This document shows, one piece after another, positions 28,531 through 50,726 of a DNA stretch of 64,000 nucleotides. Each line of letters begins with the position of its first letter. Positions within the stretch are counted from its first letter, which is position 1. The DNA lies in NCBI GenBank assembly GCA_043780835.1, contig JAYWCB010000002.1, positions 27,466-91,465 of the forward strand, given 5' to 3'. The notes beneath the pieces were generated by a model. That model ran no database searches. It saw only the letters and a program-made list of their open reading frames with translations, and was not told the DNA's origin. Source of the DNA: Minisyncoccota bacterium. Lineage in GTDB: Bacteria > Patescibacteriota > Minisyncoccia > Phycocordibacterales > UBA2100. A program made the translations under genes and the position numbers.

Positions 28531-28779
28531 GTAATTTGTTTATCCCGCACTTTTTTAATTGGGCGGGGGCCGTGAAGGAAAGCGTGGGAGGCCTGCACCC
28601 TGCCTTGCGGCCTGGGTTATGGACACTCCGCGGCGTAGGTCCTAGATTCTTGCGATATACCTGAAAAGTTCAGGAATCAGGCCAAAAAACGGACCTCCTG
28701 CGAGGCCTGCAAAATATACTCGAAAGGTACAGTGAAGTCAAACGGTGACTATTTCATTTATTGACCCGCTGGAGAGATC

Positions 28780-29169
28780 GTGTATCGTTTCAAAAGCGAA
28801 GCATGGAGAACTCCGATGACCGCTGCATTTTCTGACGTAAAAGTAGAACTATCATTCACTATCCCGAAAATGGGAAATGGTCGTCGCGTATTCGTTATTC
28901 CAAACAACGAGGGGCGGCGGCATAAAATTCTCCCAGGATTCGGCACCTATCTTGGTGACGCGAGTCTCGGAAGAATTCTCAATTTGGGTCGACCTGACCT
29001 GATTCGTACGCTCACGCCGAAATTCCGCATGCAGTCTGGCAAAGTTGTGTATGGGATTGAATGCGCATGGACGACGACTCTGCTGTTTCAATCTCCCAGC
29101 AACATCATTGTGCAGTTCGGTGTCGACGACGCTACACTTGAACTCTGCAAAAGACACGGTCTTTTTTAA
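28780..29169 (+). CDS. Hypothetical protein (island 1)
   Basis: GTG/ATG start with GGAGAG upstream. Followed by a strong terminator. Confidence 0.35.
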   Translation: MYRFKSEAWRTPMTAAFSDVKVELSFTIPKMGNGRRVFVIPNNEGRRHKILPGFGTYLGDASLGRILNLGRPDLIRTLTPKFRMQSGKVVYGIECAWTTTLLFQSPSNIIVQFGVDDATLELCKRHGLF

Positions 29170-29183
29170 ATAGCTGGAACGAA

Positions 29184-29210
29184 CGGCCGCGCAATTGCGC
29201 GGCCGTTTTT
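29184..29210 (+). terminator. Rho-independent terminator (cggccgcgc-aatt-gcgcggccg ttttt)
   Basis: Perfect 9-bp GC stem plus T-tract. Confidence 0.55.
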
Positions 29211-29330
29211 ATACTAGTTTCTGCAGCTAGACAGAAAAGTGGGCGTTTCCAGTCACGCTATTCCCCTAACTTGCATATAGTTGGGCTACATGGTTCTGTG
29301 GGTGCAGGATCATTGAAAAGGAGAATATGC

Positions 29331-29918
29331 ATGACGGTGCAGACCAACGATGCGGACTTCGCGGATATTCTCGGGCAGCTTACACAGCGTATTGCAAACG
29401 TAGATGCGTCGAACTTCGTACCACCATCCCGTCAACCGAGCACACGCGACATCATCCTCGGTCCTGCAACAGATCACATCAAGACCTTGAGGACAGCACG
29501 AGCAAAACTCAAGCAGGAGATTGAGTCGATGAGACAGAATATCATTACACTCATCGACAAGATCCAGGCGATGCTTCCGGACACCGTCGCGTCCCTCGCA
29601 GACTACAGCGTGTGGGAAGAACATAATCCTTCAGGAAAAAAGATAGTGGAGGAGCTTTATCGCTTGGACGCTTTAGGTCAGCCGATGCGCGCGATTGAGA
29701 AGATGATGACCGTCCTTCTTAATGCGGAGGTCGCTCGGGCTTATCCTGAGATCTACAAGAAGCGCAACGACGACAAGATCCCTCGCATTAACTCAAACTG
29801 GGATGTGGTGTTTGTTGATCCCCCACACTACACAGGCATCAGCATCGCGGACGGGATAGTTTTTCCGAGTTTACGAACGCTGATGACACAAGAGTCCTCG
29901 GGTATGCACAAGCATTAG
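29331..29918 (+). CDS. Hypothetical protein (island 1)
   Basis: AAAGGAG RBS 7 nt upstream of ATG 29331. Followed by a terminator. Confidence 0.4.
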   Translation: MTVQTNDADFADILGQLTQRIANVDASNFVPPSRQPSTRDIILGPATDHIKTLRTARAKLKQEIESMRQNIITLIDKIQAMLPDTVASLADYSVWEEHNPSGKKIVEELYRLDALGQPMRAIEKMMTVLLNAEVARAYPEIYKKRNDDKIPRINSNWDVVFVDPPHYTGISIADGIVFPSLRTLMTQESSGMHKH

Positions 29919-29947
29919 TCTGTGTTCTAAACGAACGACTGATGCAA

Positions 29948-29975
29948 AAAGGGCCGCTACATGCGGCCCTTTTTC
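29948..29975 (+). terminator. Rho-independent terminator (aaagggccgc-taca-tgcggcccttttt)
   Basis: Perfect stem plus T-tract. Confidence 0.55.
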
Positions 29976-30024
29976 ATATTTTTTTGGGAGTTGGTCGAGA
30001 ATACGTGGCTCTTCGGATCGTGTT

Positions 30025-30567
30025 TTATAAATCGATATACATGTGGTGTGAGTCGACGAGTTCCCCCTGATGACGGGTTCCCTTTGGGAGCATGCCGAAC
30101 TCAACGAATCCGAGCTTTTCGTACAGCGATTTTGCGAGACTGTTCGGAGCCTTCACGGTGAGAATAATCTTTTGCAATCCTTCTAGCTTTTTTGCCTCAT
30201 CAATTGTTGTTTCCATCAGCAATCGGCCAAACCCTTGTCCGCGTGATGCCGCATCAACTCCGAGCCCGAGCTTTGCGATATGACTTTCAGTTTTATCCTG
30301 CATCTCGATATTGCAAAGCCCATGAACCTCGCCATTAACGATAAGAAATAATGCTGCAGCCTTTCCTACCTCGACTTTCTCGATCAGCTTCGTAATAAAC
30401 TTCTGCTCTTCCTCGAGCGTTACCTCTTCTCCCTGCACACGCACAAACGTGCGTTCTTTAGAAAGACGATTGATGTATCTCCACGCACTTTCAACATCTG
30501 CAATTTCCGGATACCGAATGGTATACGGTGTACCATTTTTAGTCGTTCCTTCAGTAACTATTCTCAT
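30025..30567 (-). CDS. GNAT family N-acetyltransferase
   Basis: Acetyl-CoA binding motif RGQGFGRLLM, GNAT beta-alpha core. Start set at MRIVTEG. Confidence 0.7.
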   Translation of the reverse strand: MRIVTEGTTKNGTPYTIRYPEIADVESAWRYINRLSKERTFVRVQGEEVTLEEEQKFITKLIEKVEVGKAAALFLIVNGEVHGLCNIEMQDKTESHIAKLGLGVDAASRGQGFGRLLMETTIDEAKKLEGLQKIILTVKAPNSLAKSLYEKLGFVEFGMLPKGTRHQGELVDSHHMYIDL

Positions 30568-30607
30568 AGGATGAGTGTACGCTCGCACATGCTCGCTGAC
30601 GAGCGAC

Positions 30608-30904
30608 TTATTCTTCAATGTCGGCGTAGATGACAACCCCACATCCGTCATCGAGTGCGGTGTTCAAAGCTATTTCCAACGGATCGGTCGTTTCAAGTTT
30701 TGGCATCGCATCAGGGAGTGTGCCCATTTTCTCTATTGAGAGTATCCAAAAGGCATCAAACATCGCCGTATCGATTTTCTTTATCGCATCTTCCTCATTA
30801 AGGGCTTTTACAAAAATCATCGCACCGTGCTTTTCACCCGTGTTGTACCGCGCATTCCCCTGCGCAGCTGTCGCGATACCGGTGGCTATATGAATGACGT
30901 CCAT
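30608..30904 (-). CDS. Small hypothetical protein between the MTase and GNAT genes
   Basis: 98-aa ORF from MDVIHIATG. The upstream part of the annotated ORF overlaps the MTase and was rejected. Confidence 0.3.
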   Translation of the reverse strand: MDVIHIATGIATAAQGNARYNTGEKHGAMIFVKALNEEDAIKKIDTAMFDAFWILSIEKMGTLPDAMPKLETTDPLEIALNTALDDGCGVVIYADIEE

Positions 30905-30911
30905 AGATTGG

Positions 30912-31694
30912 TTATACCAGCTTCTGTAGGTACATCGAGAAGGTACGGCGTTTCCAGGCACGCTCCTCGCCGATTTTTCCGCGATTGATGTGCTTATGGG
31001 ATTTCTGGATCTTGTGGATCTCGAAGTACGGCTCAAAAAATTCACGGGCCTCGTCCTCGGTCCACACGTGCTCATGCACGCCGATCTTCGGGTGAATATA
31101 TCCTCCGGGTTCATCCGACGGATGATCTTTGAGCAGGCGCGCACTGTGCAGGTCTTCATCCGCAAGGAATGATTTGAAAAACAGCCATCCGCCCGGTTTG
31201 AGCACTCGCACGATTTCTGCGAGGAGTTTCTCACGCTCCTCTTTATGCAAGAAATGCGACGCCATCATATCGAGCACAAACGTGGTTGAGTTGTCGGCAT
31301 CCGGCAAGGGTTCCGTCATGGAGCGCACTGCAAATTCGAGCGGTAAGTCTTCGGCGTTTTTGATGGCTTCTTTGATTGCGACTTCTGATATGTCGTAACC
31401 CACGCCGCGCATGCCAAAATTATTCGACATGTAGATAATGTTGCGCCCGTTGCCGGTGCCGATATCGATCACTTTTACGATCGGATTCAGGTATTTACGA
31501 CCGAAGTCACGCTCCATCCAGCGGATGAACTTTTCAAGATCTTCTGACACATTCATAGAGAGCGCGAGGTGTTCGCTCGTTTGGTATTCCTTATTCCAGA
31601 ATTCCTTATGCTTGCCGGTCCCCTGCTTGAGAAGGGTCGTTTGCCCCGGTTTTATCTTTTTTACTTTTCGTACCATAGTCTGTATTTTCCCCAC
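30912..31694 (-). CDS. Class I SAM-dependent methyltransferase
   Basis: Motif I VIDIGTGNGRN, motif post-I GYDIS, VLKPGGWLFF. Confidence 0.7.
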   Translation of the reverse strand: MGKIQTMVRKVKKIKPGQTTLLKQGTGKHKEFWNKEYQTSEHLALSMNVSEDLEKFIRWMERDFGRKYLNPIVKVIDIGTGNGRNIIYMSNNFGMRGVGYDISEVAIKEAIKNAEDLPLEFAVRSMTEPLPDADNSTTFVLDMMASHFLHKEEREKLLAEIVRVLKPGGWLFFKSFLADEDLHSARLLKDHPSDEPGGYIHPKIGVHEHVWTEDEAREFFEPYFEIHKIQKSHKHINRGKIGEERAWKRRTFSMYLQKLV

Positions 31695-31730
31695 AATACC
31701 TTACCCCACTCTTCTATGCACCCTTCCGTA

Positions 31731-31764
31731 TCCCTATCTGTACGCGATAGCGTATATTTAGGGA
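31731..31764. promoter_or_regulatory. Operator-like repeat copy A (tccctatctgTACGCGATAGCGTAtatttaggga), palindromic core TACGC-GATA-GCGTA
   Basis: Immediately upstream of the PaaX-like gene start (31766). A near-identical copy sits at 32384-32413. Confidence 0.4.
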
Positions 31765-31765
31765 T

Positions 31766-32347
31766 ATGAGAAATATCGAGGAGAAAGGGAGAAAGCGAAG
31801 AAGAAAAGAAAATATTCAGAACGCCCTCCTTTCGATTGTCACCGTCGCTGGAACTCTAGCCGTTGCAACAGTGGCACCGAATATATTCCAAGCACTTCCT
31901 CATATCGTCGGCAAGGATCGCTATAGACTCGCATTCAAAAGTAAGACGGCGATCGATCGGTTGATCATAAAGAAGTATCTTCGTCGCGTTCGTAAAAACG
32001 GATCAGTGTTTTTGGAGTTAACCAACGAGGGCCGCCAACATCTACTTGTGGAAGAAGCGCGAGTAAGCTCTCCCGCGTCAAAAAAGAGAAAGCGATGGGA
32101 CGGTCGATATCGGCTTGTTATGTTCGATATACCAGAAAAGCGAAAAACTACGCGCGATCGCCTACGAATGCTCATGAACGAATTTGGCTTTATGCGATTA
32201 CAAAACAGCGTGTGGGTTTCTCCGTACGATTGTGAGGAACTGATTGCACTCGTAAAGGCGGAGCTCCGAATCGGGTCGGCAATTCTGTACGCTCTTGTCG
32301 ACCAGATCGAGGGCGAACGAAGAATTAAGGATCATTTTGGACTGTAA
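31766..32347 (+). CDS. PaaX-like transcriptional regulator-like protein (wHTH-like N-terminus plus Cas2/VapD-like ferredoxin-fold C-terminal domain)
   Basis: C-terminal YRLVMFDIPEKRKTTRDRLRMLMNEFGFMRLQNSVWVS strongly resembles the Cas2 N-terminal beta1-alpha1-beta2 region (...YDV..KRR.R..K....YG.RVQNSVFEC). N-terminal region is basic/HTH-like. Confidence 0.45.
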   Translation: MRNIEEKGRKRRRKENIQNALLSIVTVAGTLAVATVAPNIFQALPHIVGKDRYRLAFKSKTAIDRLIIKKYLRRVRKNGSVFLELTNEGRQHLLVEEARVSSPASKKRKRWDGRYRLVMFDIPEKRKTTRDRLRMLMNEFGFMRLQNSVWVSPYDCEELIALVKAELRIGSAILYALVDQIEGERRIKDHFGL

Positions 32348-32383
32348 TATACCGCCACAAACAAATATATGTCGTTTAATAAA

Positions 32384-32413
32384 TCCCTATTTCTACGCGA
32401 TAGCGTAATTATA
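32384..32413. promoter_or_regulatory. Operator-like repeat copy B (tccctatttcTACGCGATAGCGTAattatagaga)
   Basis: Second copy of the palindromic motif, upstream of small gene 32501-32788. Confidence 0.4.
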
Positions 32414-32500
32414 GAGACATGACTGTAGTGAGGTAGTGAGATAGCGGATAAATCATACGTCTGGTACCGTACCACAGGATCATCACCGAAGGAGACTCTT

Positions 32501-32788
32501 ATGTTGGCTATTCGCATTATTGCGATGCCTCCTGGCTTCGCGCCCGAAGAAATACGTAGATCTTGGATTGGCGTTACCATTCCGCTCGCGACAGACGAAG
32601 AGATTGCAGTAGATCCGCCATCGGGCTTCGGATTCGGCAACCTGAACATGGACGGACATCTTGTCCTTCTAGACAAGGCTCTGGCTGCTTTGGATGCTGC
32701 TCAACAGAATGAGGCTTTCATATTCTGGGAACAATTCCTAATGGGCAGATATCTTCGTTTCAGCAAGGACGTGTGCGAACTGGTTTAA
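32501..32788 (+). CDS. Small hypothetical protein (island 1)
   Basis: GGAGA RBS 6 nt upstream. Terminator follows. Confidence 0.4.
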   Translation: MLAIRIIAMPPGFAPEEIRRSWIGVTIPLATDEEIAVDPPSGFGFGNLNMDGHLVLLDKALAALDAAQQNEAFIFWEQFLMGRYLRFSKDVCELV

Positions 32789-32804
32789 GTTCGTTCCAAT
32801 ATCA

Positions 32805-32832
32805 AAATGGCCGCTTTGCAGCGGCCATTTTT
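32805..32832. terminator. Bidirectional terminator (aaatggccgc-tttgca-gcggccattttt) between the island and rplE
   Basis: Perfect 10-bp stem with flanking A/T tracts. Confidence 0.55.
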
Positions 32833-32837
32833 GTTTG

Positions 32838-49891: not shown

Positions 49892-50726
49892 CATTCACGG
49901 TTCTAGTTTCGGTAATTGTGGTAGGTGTAGCACCGGCTTTTGAATGGCAGAAGAGTGTGTAATCGGTGCGACTCGTGATCGGACTGGTGACTTTCCCTGA
50001 AGGACCCGAGCCTGAAGAAATTCCTGACGTATCCCACGAACCGGTACGACTCCCTGCGGTGCCGTCGCCGTTTGTGCCATGCACCGTGCAGTCACGTACA
50101 TTTGTTACGTTCCAGTAGACGCGTGATGGATCTCCTGAACGTACGAGTGACGGCCGGACTTCGAGATGCCCTGAGGCACTGAATCCTTGCGTCGTGGTAA
50201 ATCCTATAAATTGTGGTGATTGTGGTGGTAGACACGCATTGCCTTGTGCGGTGTACCCGACCGGACATGCTGGACATGCCCCCAATCTGTCGGGCAGGGA
50301 TCCATCCCAACAGGTTGATGCGTACGTGCTTTCGTATGAGCTTTCTGCGGGACCGGAGGCTTGAGAAGGTCCGGAGGCTTGAGAAGGTCCGGAGGCTTGA
50401 GGTGGAGGATATGCGGCTTCGTAGTAACTCGTAACAGGACCGGAGTCTTGTGGTGGCGGATATGAGGCTTGGTAGTAGCTTTGGTAGTACGCCTGATAGT
50501 ACGCCTGATAGTACGCTTCGTAGTAGTCTACGACAGATCCGCCAGATGCGGGCACAACTTGTAAACCCGATGGCGTGGTATCAGTGAAGCGAGCCTCGGC
50601 TGAAACTGCAACATGATGATTCGACACCCCATTCAAGAGAAAATATGCAATTGCAAAAATTGCCGCCGCAAATAATCCATACCGCAGAAAACGGAATACG
50701 GGGCGCCGATGCGTGTGATGAACCAT
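49857..50726 (-). CDS. Anchored Tyr/Gln/Ser-rich repetitive surface protein
   Basis: N-terminal TM. YYQAYYQAYYQSYYQASY and (GPSQAS)n repeats encoded by DNA tandem repeats. Confidence 0.4.
   Translation of the reverse strand: MVHHTHRRPVFRFLRYGLFAAAIFAIAYFLLNGVSNHHVAVSAEARFTDTTPSGLQVVPASGGSVVDYYEAYYQAYYQAYYQSYYQASYPPPQDSGPVTSYYEAAYPPPQASGPSQASGPSQASGPAESSYESTYASTCWDGSLPDRLGACPACPVGYTAQGNACLPPQSPQFIGFTTTQGFSASGHLEVRPSLVRSGDPSRVYWNVTNVRDCTVHGTNGDGTAGSRTGSWDTSGISSGSGPSGKVTSPITSRTDYTLFCHSKAGATPTTITETRTVNVIPQWYEPAGS
50353..50404. repeat. 18-bp tandem repeat (ccggaggcttgagaaggt) x about 2.8 inside CDS
   Basis: Direct perfect repeats encoding GPSQAS units. Confidence 0.55.
50467..50530. repeat. 12-bp tandem repeat (gcctgatagtac and variants) x about 5 inside CDS
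   Basis: Direct repeats encoding AYYQ units. Confidence 0.5.

Follow-up and report, generated by a model that had tools for sequence, protein, structure and literature searches.

A Short PaaX-Like Regulator with a Cas2-Like Domain in a Minisyncoccota Bacterium and the Candidate Operators That Flank Its Gene

Introduction

The PaaX protein of Escherichia coli represses its own promoter by steric hindrance of RNA polymerase, binds long-spaced inverted repeats (TGATTC-N27-GAATCA), and carries a C-terminal domain that binds phenylacetyl-coenzyme A (PMC9493321). The Cas2-like nature of its middle domain is already recorded in Pfam. In the current study, we analyzed 64,000 nucleotides (nt) of contig JAYWCB010000002.1 (assembly GCA_043780835.1), from a Minisyncoccota bacterium; this whole stretch is called the window, and coordinates refer to it unless another locus is named. 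The subject is a gene in the window that encodes a short PaaX-like regulator, together with the two copies of a nested palindrome that flank it. We found that the regulator consists of a winged helix and a Cas2-like domain and lacks the PaaX_C domain, that one palindrome overlaps the predicted promoter of the gene, and that the other follows its stop codon. The two palindromes are candidate operators (operators 1 and 2) and, judged from sequence, the putative cognate sites of the adjacent regulator. The three features are as follows.

31766 to 32347, plus strand: short PaaX-like regulator of 193 amino acids (aa) (Pfam, NCBIfam, and predicted structure)
31731 to 31764, no strand assigned: candidate operator 1, the nested palindrome TCCCTA-tctg-TACGC-GATA-GCGTA-tatt-TAGGGA, with 0 mismatches (sequence and six-orthologue footprint)
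32384 to 32417, no strand assigned: candidate operator 2, the same nested palindrome (TCCCTA...TAGAGA) with 1 mismatch, in direct orientation, 36 nt after the regulator stop codon

As in PaaX of E. coli W (8A39; TIGR02277/COG3327), a winged helix is followed by a Cas2-like domain (PF20803), and the predicted site again consists of 6-bp inverted repeats set far apart, with N27 between them in PaaX and N22 here (TCCCTA-N22-TAGGGA). This site, with its 6-bp arms, lies across the −10 box and transcription start predicted for the regulator's own gene. However, the regulator is some 110 residues shorter than PaaX (193 residues, compared with 305 in the solved chain) and is without the C-terminal helical inducer-binding domain. 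The candidate operator contains a GC-rich inner palindrome that the PaaX site does not have, strand 1 keeps the Asp typical of Cas2, a leaderless mRNA is predicted, and a second candidate operator lies past the stop codon. Moreover, there are no paa genes among the neighbors examined, which were the methyltransferase, GNAT, and ribosomal protein genes. The regulator is probably PaaX-like in its working but is neither a PaaX equivalog nor a Cas2.

With Cas2 itself (TIGR01573 and PF09827; Sulfolobus solfataricus 3EXC), the regulator shares a ferredoxin-like β-α-β-β-α-β domain, an Asp on strand 1, and a Q-x-S motif. Whereas Cas2 is a stand-alone protein of about 90 to 100 aa encoded beside cas1 and an array, the domain is fused here to a DNA-binding domain in a protein of 193 aa, the family is multicopy with a palindrome of its own for each copy, and the sequence similarity is marginal (E value of 0.12). 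Two further PaaX-like proteins to which no role is assigned, Rv0674 (3KFW) and Jannaschia 3L09, share the two N-terminal domains; they are longer (234 to 250 aa), with a further domain at the C terminus, and in Rv0674 the strand-1 Asp is missing (IVTS, versus FDIP in the regulator). Winged-helix regulators of the PadR and MarR types, in contrast, form helix-mediated dimers, have no Cas2-like domain, and bind half-sites that are typically much closer together.

Results

A first-pass annotation of this DNA had proposed a PaaX-like regulator with a Cas2-like fold, and the domain searches bear this out. The protein comprises a basic N-terminal tail (residues 5 to 16), a winged helix (approximately residues 17 to 105), and a Cas2-like ferredoxin-fold domain (approximately residues 109 to 193). 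Pfam PF20803 (the PaaX central Cas2-like domain, PaaX_M) matched residues 109 to 176 with an E value of 2.6e-18 and 66.3 bits, against a cutoff of 24 bits, and CRISPR_Cas2 (PF09827) scored well under this (E value of 3.3e-6, 28 bits). Of the NCBIfam models, PaaX (TIGR02277) reached 39.3 bits, far under its equivalog cutoff of 264.55, while cas2 (TIGR01573) reached 35.6 bits, over its cutoff of 24.5; the latter match is a false positive of the cutoff. PaaX_C (PF08223) gave no match in the regulator at an E value of ≤1, and the protein stops about 17 residues past the Cas2-like domain, which, C-terminal in this protein, is the counterpart of the PaaX central domain.

An AlphaFold model of the regulator, computed with 28 homologues as input, had a mean predicted local distance difference test (pLDDT) score of 76, and the C-terminal domain scored 83 to 92 when averaged over 10-residue blocks. 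The model shows three helices and a β wing, followed by a β-α-β-β-α-β domain. When it was compared with the PDB by Foldseek, E. coli PaaX (8A39) ranked first (E value of 9e-5 over 181 aligned columns), the PaaX-like Rv0674 (3KFW) and Jannaschia 3L09 ranked second and fourth, and a true Cas2 (5ZYF) first appeared at rank 39. An expected likeness to Cas2 and PaaX_C therefore stands in part: the fold resembles that of PaaX and, at greater distance, that of Cas2, but PaaX_C is absent. In searches by profile, Rv0674 was the best sequence match of the full-length protein among solved structures (E value of 0.013), and the C-terminal domain by itself had its best match among PDB sequences, a weak one, in the Cas2 3EXC of Sulfolobus (E value of 0.12). 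Residue D121 is invariant in the family and aligns with the strand-1 Asp (YDV) of 3EXC, and the Q-x-S motif aligns as well, so that the strand-1 Asp and QNSV-type motif remarked on in the first-pass annotation are both real points of correspondence.

The N terminus (residues 1 to 45, encoded by 31766 to 31900) has the poly-basic tail KGRKRRRKEN and, after it, a conserved and very hydrophobic stretch, NALLSIVTVAGTLAVATVAPNIF. In the fold matches, this hydrophobic stretch corresponds to helices 1 and 2 of the winged helix, where the confidence of the model is about 51 to 67. A membrane anchor at the N terminus was considered and is unlikely, as the first 100 or so residues superpose on the winged helices of PadR, MarR, and PaaX proteins, at moderate model confidence.

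The palindrome had been described previously as a shorter element. Two exact copies of the 14-mer core TACGCGATAGCGTA are indeed present in the window (at 31741 to 31754 and 32394 to 32407, and nowhere else), but the motif is larger than this and forms a nested palindrome of 34 nt, TCCCTA-N4-TACGC-GATA-GCGTA-N4-TAGGGA. The full motif occurs twice in the 64 kb against 0 expected, with no match in any shuffle. The core with up to 2 mismatches has five matches against 0.45 expected, a number reached in 0 of 100 shuffles, and a search of the window with exact and degenerate forms of the motif revealed no third copy. Both copies lie within a 40-nt direct repeat (31730 to 31769 and 32383 to 32422; 83% identical) that includes an ATG, and operator 1 occupies the divergent region between a methyltransferase gene and the regulator gene. 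When JGI metagenomes were scanned with CCCTATNNNTANGCGATAGCGT in order to reveal a regulon, five hits were obtained; we judged these to be chance matches, because none adjoins a family member and none resembles the full palindrome.

Two elements relevant to the promoter were read from the window.

31753 to 31758, plus strand: −10-like box TATATT, 7 nt before the A of the start codon (read from the sequence), overlapping the right half of operator 1
32419 to 32436, plus strand: ATG in register with the regulator start, at the 3′ edge of the 40-nt repeat, opening a 5-codon open reading frame (ORF) that reads MTVVR and then stops (sequence)

Start codons were re-derived for 89 hits of the family before the upstream DNA was aligned, and promoter features were counted on 81 nonredundant genes. 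A TAnnnT box lies 5 to 8 nt (nearly always 6 to 7 nt) before the start codon in 73 of these 81 genes, compared with 20% of control ORFs, and a Shine-Dalgarno (SD)-like 4-mer is found in 6 of the 81. The controls were 520 ORFs of at least 200 aa from Patescibacteria loci, and their starts were taken crudely as the first ATG; the 20% refers to boxes 5 to 8 nt before that ATG, and about 9% of these ORFs have an SD-like 4-mer. Leaderless genes may be common in these Patescibacteria genomes. Because a TAnnnT box stands near the start codon and SD sites are almost lacking, the mRNAs of the family are probably leaderless, and that of the window would start at or near A31766. A candidate operator placed over both the −10 box and the predicted transcription start points to autorepression. 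At copy 2, the −10 equivalent is degenerate (TAATTA/AATTAT) and is without the TAnnnT pattern, so that copy 2 appears weak as a promoter-like sequence.

The same architecture recurs across the family. In a comparison of about 90 related Patescibacteria loci, a palindrome of 36 to 44 nt was found directly upstream of nearly every family member. Where a clade shares 50% or more identity with the query, the right arm either borders the ATG or extends over it (CATATTCC...GGAATATG), and in more distant clades the palindrome lies approximately 20 to 25 nt further upstream. The outer arms vary by clade yet stay complementary (ATTCCCTA/TAGGGAAT, ATTGGCTA/TAGCCAAT, and ATCAAAAG/CTTTTGAT), the cores are of a few types (CGCTATAGCG, GCCATGGC, ACGACCGT, and CCGGTCGG), and the type of operator correlates with the sequence of the recognition helix and wing. 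The operators of paralogues in the same genome are mostly nonmatching, with few cross-matches. The symmetry is bipartite: positions ±2 to 4 and ±11 to 20 from the center are 80 to 100% complementary, and positions ±5 to 10 are only 38 to 66% complementary. The mismatches within the palindromes (44 G·T, 61 A·C, and 122 others) show no excess of G·T wobble. This bipartite symmetry, together with the lack of a wobble excess, argues for a DNA site that is read by protein rather than for an RNA hairpin.

Closer comparison was possible within the orthologue group of the query, which consists of the window and loci L001, L096, L095, L094, and L004 (73 to 100% protein identity). In these six, the arms of both copies covary genome by genome, and the flanking DNA is not conserved; TCCCTA/TAGGGA is changed to TTCCTA/TAGGAA in L094 and to TTCCAAAT/ATTTGGAA in L004. 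Operator 1 is a conserved block in the six-orthologue footprint and shows compensatory arm changes. The autoregulation suggested by the first-pass annotation accordingly gains good comparative support from the upstream palindromes, the promoter geometry, the covariation of operator and recognition helix, and the concerted changes in the arms.

Other blocks were seen in the upstream DNA. In a subfamily no more than 48% identical to the query (L081, L051, L038, L046, L033, and others), the left arm holds TTATCCACA or TTATCAACA, which are identical to the DnaA-box consensus. Closer clades have a block resembling TATCCACA or TATGCACA approximately 45 to 55 nt upstream of the ATG (in the window, TATGCAC at 31715 to 31721). 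These DnaA-box-like and TATCCACA-type blocks may represent a promoter element, the site of a second protein, or a DnaA site.

Second copies were counted in the 50 loci whose upstream palindrome measures 26 nt or more. In 33 of these, a second copy of the clade-specific palindrome lies 0 to 200 nt past the stop codon, usually in direct orientation and, in roughly two-thirds of the 33, within 30 nt of the stop; the spacing of the two operators simply tracks the length of the gene. Among the six orthologues, copy 2 is the sole conserved block downstream of the stop codon, and the DNA beyond it cannot be aligned. At two loci, L012 (2539 to 2578) and L014 (2768 to 2803), a third copy was found approximately 3.3 kb from the regulator. 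In L014, the third copy separates the gene for a 787-aa Ig-domain protein from a UDP-glucose/GDP-mannose dehydrogenase-like gene, the latter 60 nt downstream of the copy, and a GT4 glycosyltransferase gene is convergent on the other side; this suggests cell envelope targets for this paralogue.

In the window, the DNA past copy 2 contains a small ORF and a terminator.

32501 to 32788, plus strand: ORF95, 95 aa, lineage-specific cargo downstream of operator 2, with a good SD site (GAAGGAG, 32488 to 32494)
32804 to 32831, no strand assigned: bidirectional intrinsic terminator with a 12-bp stem and a T tract on the plus strand, and a shorter version on the minus strand

The earlier annotation placed the second palindrome upstream of this small gene and took co-regulation of the gene to be its purpose. 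As to position, copy 2 does lie some 80 nt before ORF95, but it adjoins the stop codon of the regulator, only 36 nt away. As to purpose, the proposal would have one regulator acting on two promoters in a two-gene regulon, and we regard it as possible but rather unlikely. It is favored by the 40-nt repeat of the window, in which the −10-like box and the ATG stay in register, by the good SD site and separate terminator of ORF95, and by the fact that the next ORF of at least 100 aa is codirectional in 10 of the 33 loci, in several of them 14 to 70 nt from copy 2. Yet that next ORF is convergent in 20 of the 33 (and absent from the locus in 3), and about 8 of the 20 convergent ORFs end merely 40 to 80 nt from copy 2; orientation was counted on ORFs of this size only, greedy ORF calling being noisy for small genes. 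In addition, copy 2 tracks the stop codon, and its −10 equivalent lacks the TAnnnT pattern. What lies beyond it differs even between close relatives: the window has the 95-aa ORF, L001 has an unrelated ORF of 60 aa, and L095 has none, only a gap of 135 nt between the regulator and the end of rplE, although copy 2 is still present. Because copy 2 follows the stop codon whatever gene comes next, and because ORF95 is missing or replaced in close relatives, we assign operator 2, on comparative sequence grounds, to the regulator gene and not to ORF95; co-regulation of the small gene accounts poorly for its conservation. ORF95 may nonetheless be under operator 2 control in this particular genome, in a manner incidental to the conserved feature.

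ORF95 itself has no Pfam or NCBIfam match, and its single homologue among 5.8 billion clusters (61% identity) is on a contig that has neither the regulator nor the motif. Its 82-nt leader folds no better than shuffled sequences (z score of +0.94). A structured leader, small RNA (sRNA), or riboswitch past copy 2 was therefore dropped as a candidate, there being also no Rfam match at the gathering score. The terminator at 32804 to 32831 is common to the ORF95 transcript on the plus strand and, on the minus strand, to rplE, the end of the S10-to-L5 operon; Rfam found merely subthreshold sRNA look-alikes there (STnc50 and ar35). In L001, an 85%-identical relative, the region past copy 2 (L001 10643 to 10700) contains a run of 10 G residues, which could be an assembly artifact or a slippage-prone tract, and an uncalled ORF of about 55 to 60 codons that was recognized by eye and begins at the ATG in register with the repeat.

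A different explanation holds that the palindromes are hairpins (a terminator or a stabilizing 3′ stem-loop) or else the ends of a selfish module; in the latter form, the locus would be a cassette of the REP/RAYT or IS200 type in which the Asp of the Cas2-like domain cuts or joins DNA at the palindromes. We consider this improbable. Copy 1, as RNA, would fold with an energy of −25.6 kcal/mol, which favors a hairpin; however, copy 2 reaches just −9.9 kcal/mol and has no U tract, and a 6-nt asymmetric stretch on each side breaks the symmetry, with mismatches that show no wobble bias. Copy 2 was also not called by the terminator scan, and an intrinsic terminator at this position was rejected. The idea of a selfish module draws on the very different genomic contexts in which the palindrome-flanked gene is found across lineages, on its position inside a variable island that interrupts an otherwise conserved ribosomal protein cluster, and on the invariance of D121 and its alignment with the active-site Asp of Cas2. 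REP/RAYT and IS200/IS605 elements, though, use HUH motifs and a catalytic Tyr and occur as dispersed, near-identical copies, whereas the palindrome here has two copies in 64 kb, and the alignment of the family shows neither an HUH or tyrosine-transposase motif pattern nor an invariant His-x-His. Furthermore, the paralogues are diverged and have mostly different palindromes, unlike active mobile elements, and orthologues with as little as 73% identity have stably inherited the same location. A phage or mobile origin was likewise rejected, since no relatives were found among the 2.9 million viral contigs of IMG/VR.

The family is large and confined, as far as names allow, to one part of the bacterial tree. 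A word-indexed search recovered 183 full-length homologues, uniformly of about 190 aa, and all of those bearing organism names are Kaiserbacteria, Paceibacteria, or other Patescibacteria. An exhaustive profile search of clusters at 50% identity returned 326 clusters at an E value of ≤1e-30, 2,493 at 1e-10, and 5,390 at 1e-3, the weakest of which probably include other PaaX- or Cas2-like proteins, and at least 578 family loci were confirmed among GTDB species representatives. The genomes carry several paralogues each (four contigs of JAUSGQ01, for example, have one apiece), and those of a single genome are distantly related, each being 39 to 58% identical to the query; the 64-kb window holds no second member.

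Many of the homologues carry the name “CRISPR-associated endonuclease Cas2” in NCBI and JGI, because TIGR01573 passes its cutoff. That the regulator belongs to a CRISPR adaptation module as a true Cas2 is, despite this score and these names, scarcely conceivable, given a protein twice the size of Cas2 with an N-terminal winged helix, the higher score of PaaX_M (66 versus 28 bits), PaaX as the best solved match of the model with Cas2 at rank 39, several paralogues per genome, and the absence of any CRISPR-like array from the window, as the first-pass annotation had also held, and from the 944 kb of DNA surrounding 90 family loci. The cas1 gene was not encountered at the locus, although no explicit search for it was made, and the window contains no tRNA gene.

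Two minus-strand genes adjoin the regulator on its other side.

30912 to 31676, minus strand: class I S-adenosylmethionine methyltransferase, divergent from the regulator (Pfam Methyltransf_25/11)
30025 to 30651, minus strand: GNAT acetyltransferase, downstream of the methyltransferase (Pfam)

The start of the methyltransferase gene (ATG, 31676 to 31674) was set by comparison with orthologues of 254 aa. Its pairing with the regulator is conserved in L001, L004, L094, L095, and L096; the GNAT gene is present in L001, L094, and L096 and absent from L004 and L095. The six-orthologue alignment of the intergenic DNA (31683 to 31721) shows two conserved blocks outside the operator, CAATACC and TATGCAC, which are 16 nt apart. 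Their reverse complements, TATTGT (31693 to 31698) and TGCATA (31715 to 31720), are placed on the minus strand as the −10 and −35 elements of the methyltransferase would be. As these promoter-like blocks sit outside operator 1, control of the methyltransferase by the regulator is only a possibility.

These genes belong to a variable island (28531 to 32837) that splits the S10-spc ribosomal protein cluster between rplE (L5) and rpsN (S14). In the window and in L001, L004, L094, L095, and L096, the methyltransferase and PaaX-like genes are always present, and the other contents of the island vary, namely the GNAT gene and plus-strand ORFs of about 129 to 215 aa without a family match (28780 to 29169 and 29271 to 29918 in the window). 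In L095, the island also encodes a Shedu SduA_C domain protein of 385 aa (L095 298 to 1455). The possibility, raised by the splitting of the cluster, that operator 1 controls the downstream half of the ribosomal operon was dropped for the present genome on account of the plus-strand ORFs at 28780 to 29918, which lie between the GNAT gene and rpsN. Elsewhere in the window are tandem repeats unrelated to the regulator, at 50353 to 50401 (an 18-nt unit repeated 2.7 times with 100% identity) and at 50467 to 50525 (a 12-nt unit repeated 4.9 times).

Discussion

The explanation that we favor, and consider probable, is that the regulator is a self-repressing PaaX-like dimer with a second site after its own gene. 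The protein would dimerize through its Cas2-like domain, as described for PaaX, and the dimer would bind the 34-bp palindrome. Its two winged helices would read the outer arms TCCCTA/TAGGGA, the centers of which are approximately 28 bp apart, and the GC-rich inner core would be contacted by a different region of the protein, perhaps the Cas2-like dimer or the basic tail at the N terminus. With operator 1 occupied, the −10 box and the leaderless start would be covered; protein bound there would exclude RNA polymerase, and the gene would thus repress itself. Operator 2 would act as a second site, most likely by raising local occupancy through cooperative binding or through looping over about 650 bp. 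In addition, operator 2 may be a roadblock to transcription entering or leaving the gene, set against the convergent, and presumably highly transcribed, S10-to-L5 operon, and in this genome it possibly throttles a weak promoter before ORF95.

Paired sites a few hundred base pairs apart that work through cooperativity or looping are familiar from lambda CI (OL and OR, which flank cI), LacI (O1 and O3), and GalR (OE and OI). The likeness lies in layout and in the proposed mechanism only; there is no homology.

Several observations are not easily accommodated by a self-repressing dimer with two operators. No second copy was detectable in 17 of the 50 loci. Copy 2 is not the more symmetric of the two copies (mean symmetry of 0.76 versus 0.80, P = 0.15), which leaves unsupported the notion of an auxiliary operator that is stronger and more symmetric than operator 1. 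No ligand-binding domain is evident in the regulator. The confidence of the model is moderate in its N-terminal half (pLDDT of about 51 to 82 by 10-residue block), and residues 20 to 45 are hydrophobic enough for a membrane-helix call (Kyte-Doolittle value of approximately 1.8 over 19 residues). Finally, D121 is at the catalytic position of Cas2, and the Cas2-like domain has many other invariant polar residues; a pure dimerization role would not obviously require these.

The last of these points could be taken to mean that the family, throughout the Candidate Phyla Radiation (CPR), consists of fusions between a winged helix and a Cas2 nuclease that cut, nick, or recombine the palindromes flanking their own genes. 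We regard this as a long shot. If it were true, the operator-gene-operator unit would be a site-specific DNA-processing or cassette-exchange module, the family would be an evolutionary bridge from nucleases of the Cas2/VapD type to regulators of the PaaX type, and the hypervariable DNA past copy 2 and the island in the ribosomal protein cluster would have arisen from such reactions.

In the literature that we searched, there was no paper linking PaaX with Cas2 or with CPR lineages. What seems to be undescribed there is the short, CPR-specific, two-domain family and its systematic mislabeling as Cas2, as well as the clade-specific nested operators in leaderless promoters and the conserved second operator after the stop codon. 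The mislabeling has a practical consequence: with hundreds of “Cas2” proteins of Patescibacteria being regulators, censuses of CRISPR systems in the CPR that count Cas2 are inflated. For a self-repressing regulator, the layout is an unusual one, in which a predicted leaderless promoter lies inside one candidate operator, a second lies past the stop codon, and the protein is a ligand-less PaaX core that has kept the Asp of Cas2. Gene regulation in the CPR is almost unstudied. In this family, a genome has several paralogues, every one of which has its own easily recognized candidate operator, and the family offers both orthogonal regulator-operator pairs and the prediction of regulons from sequence alone.

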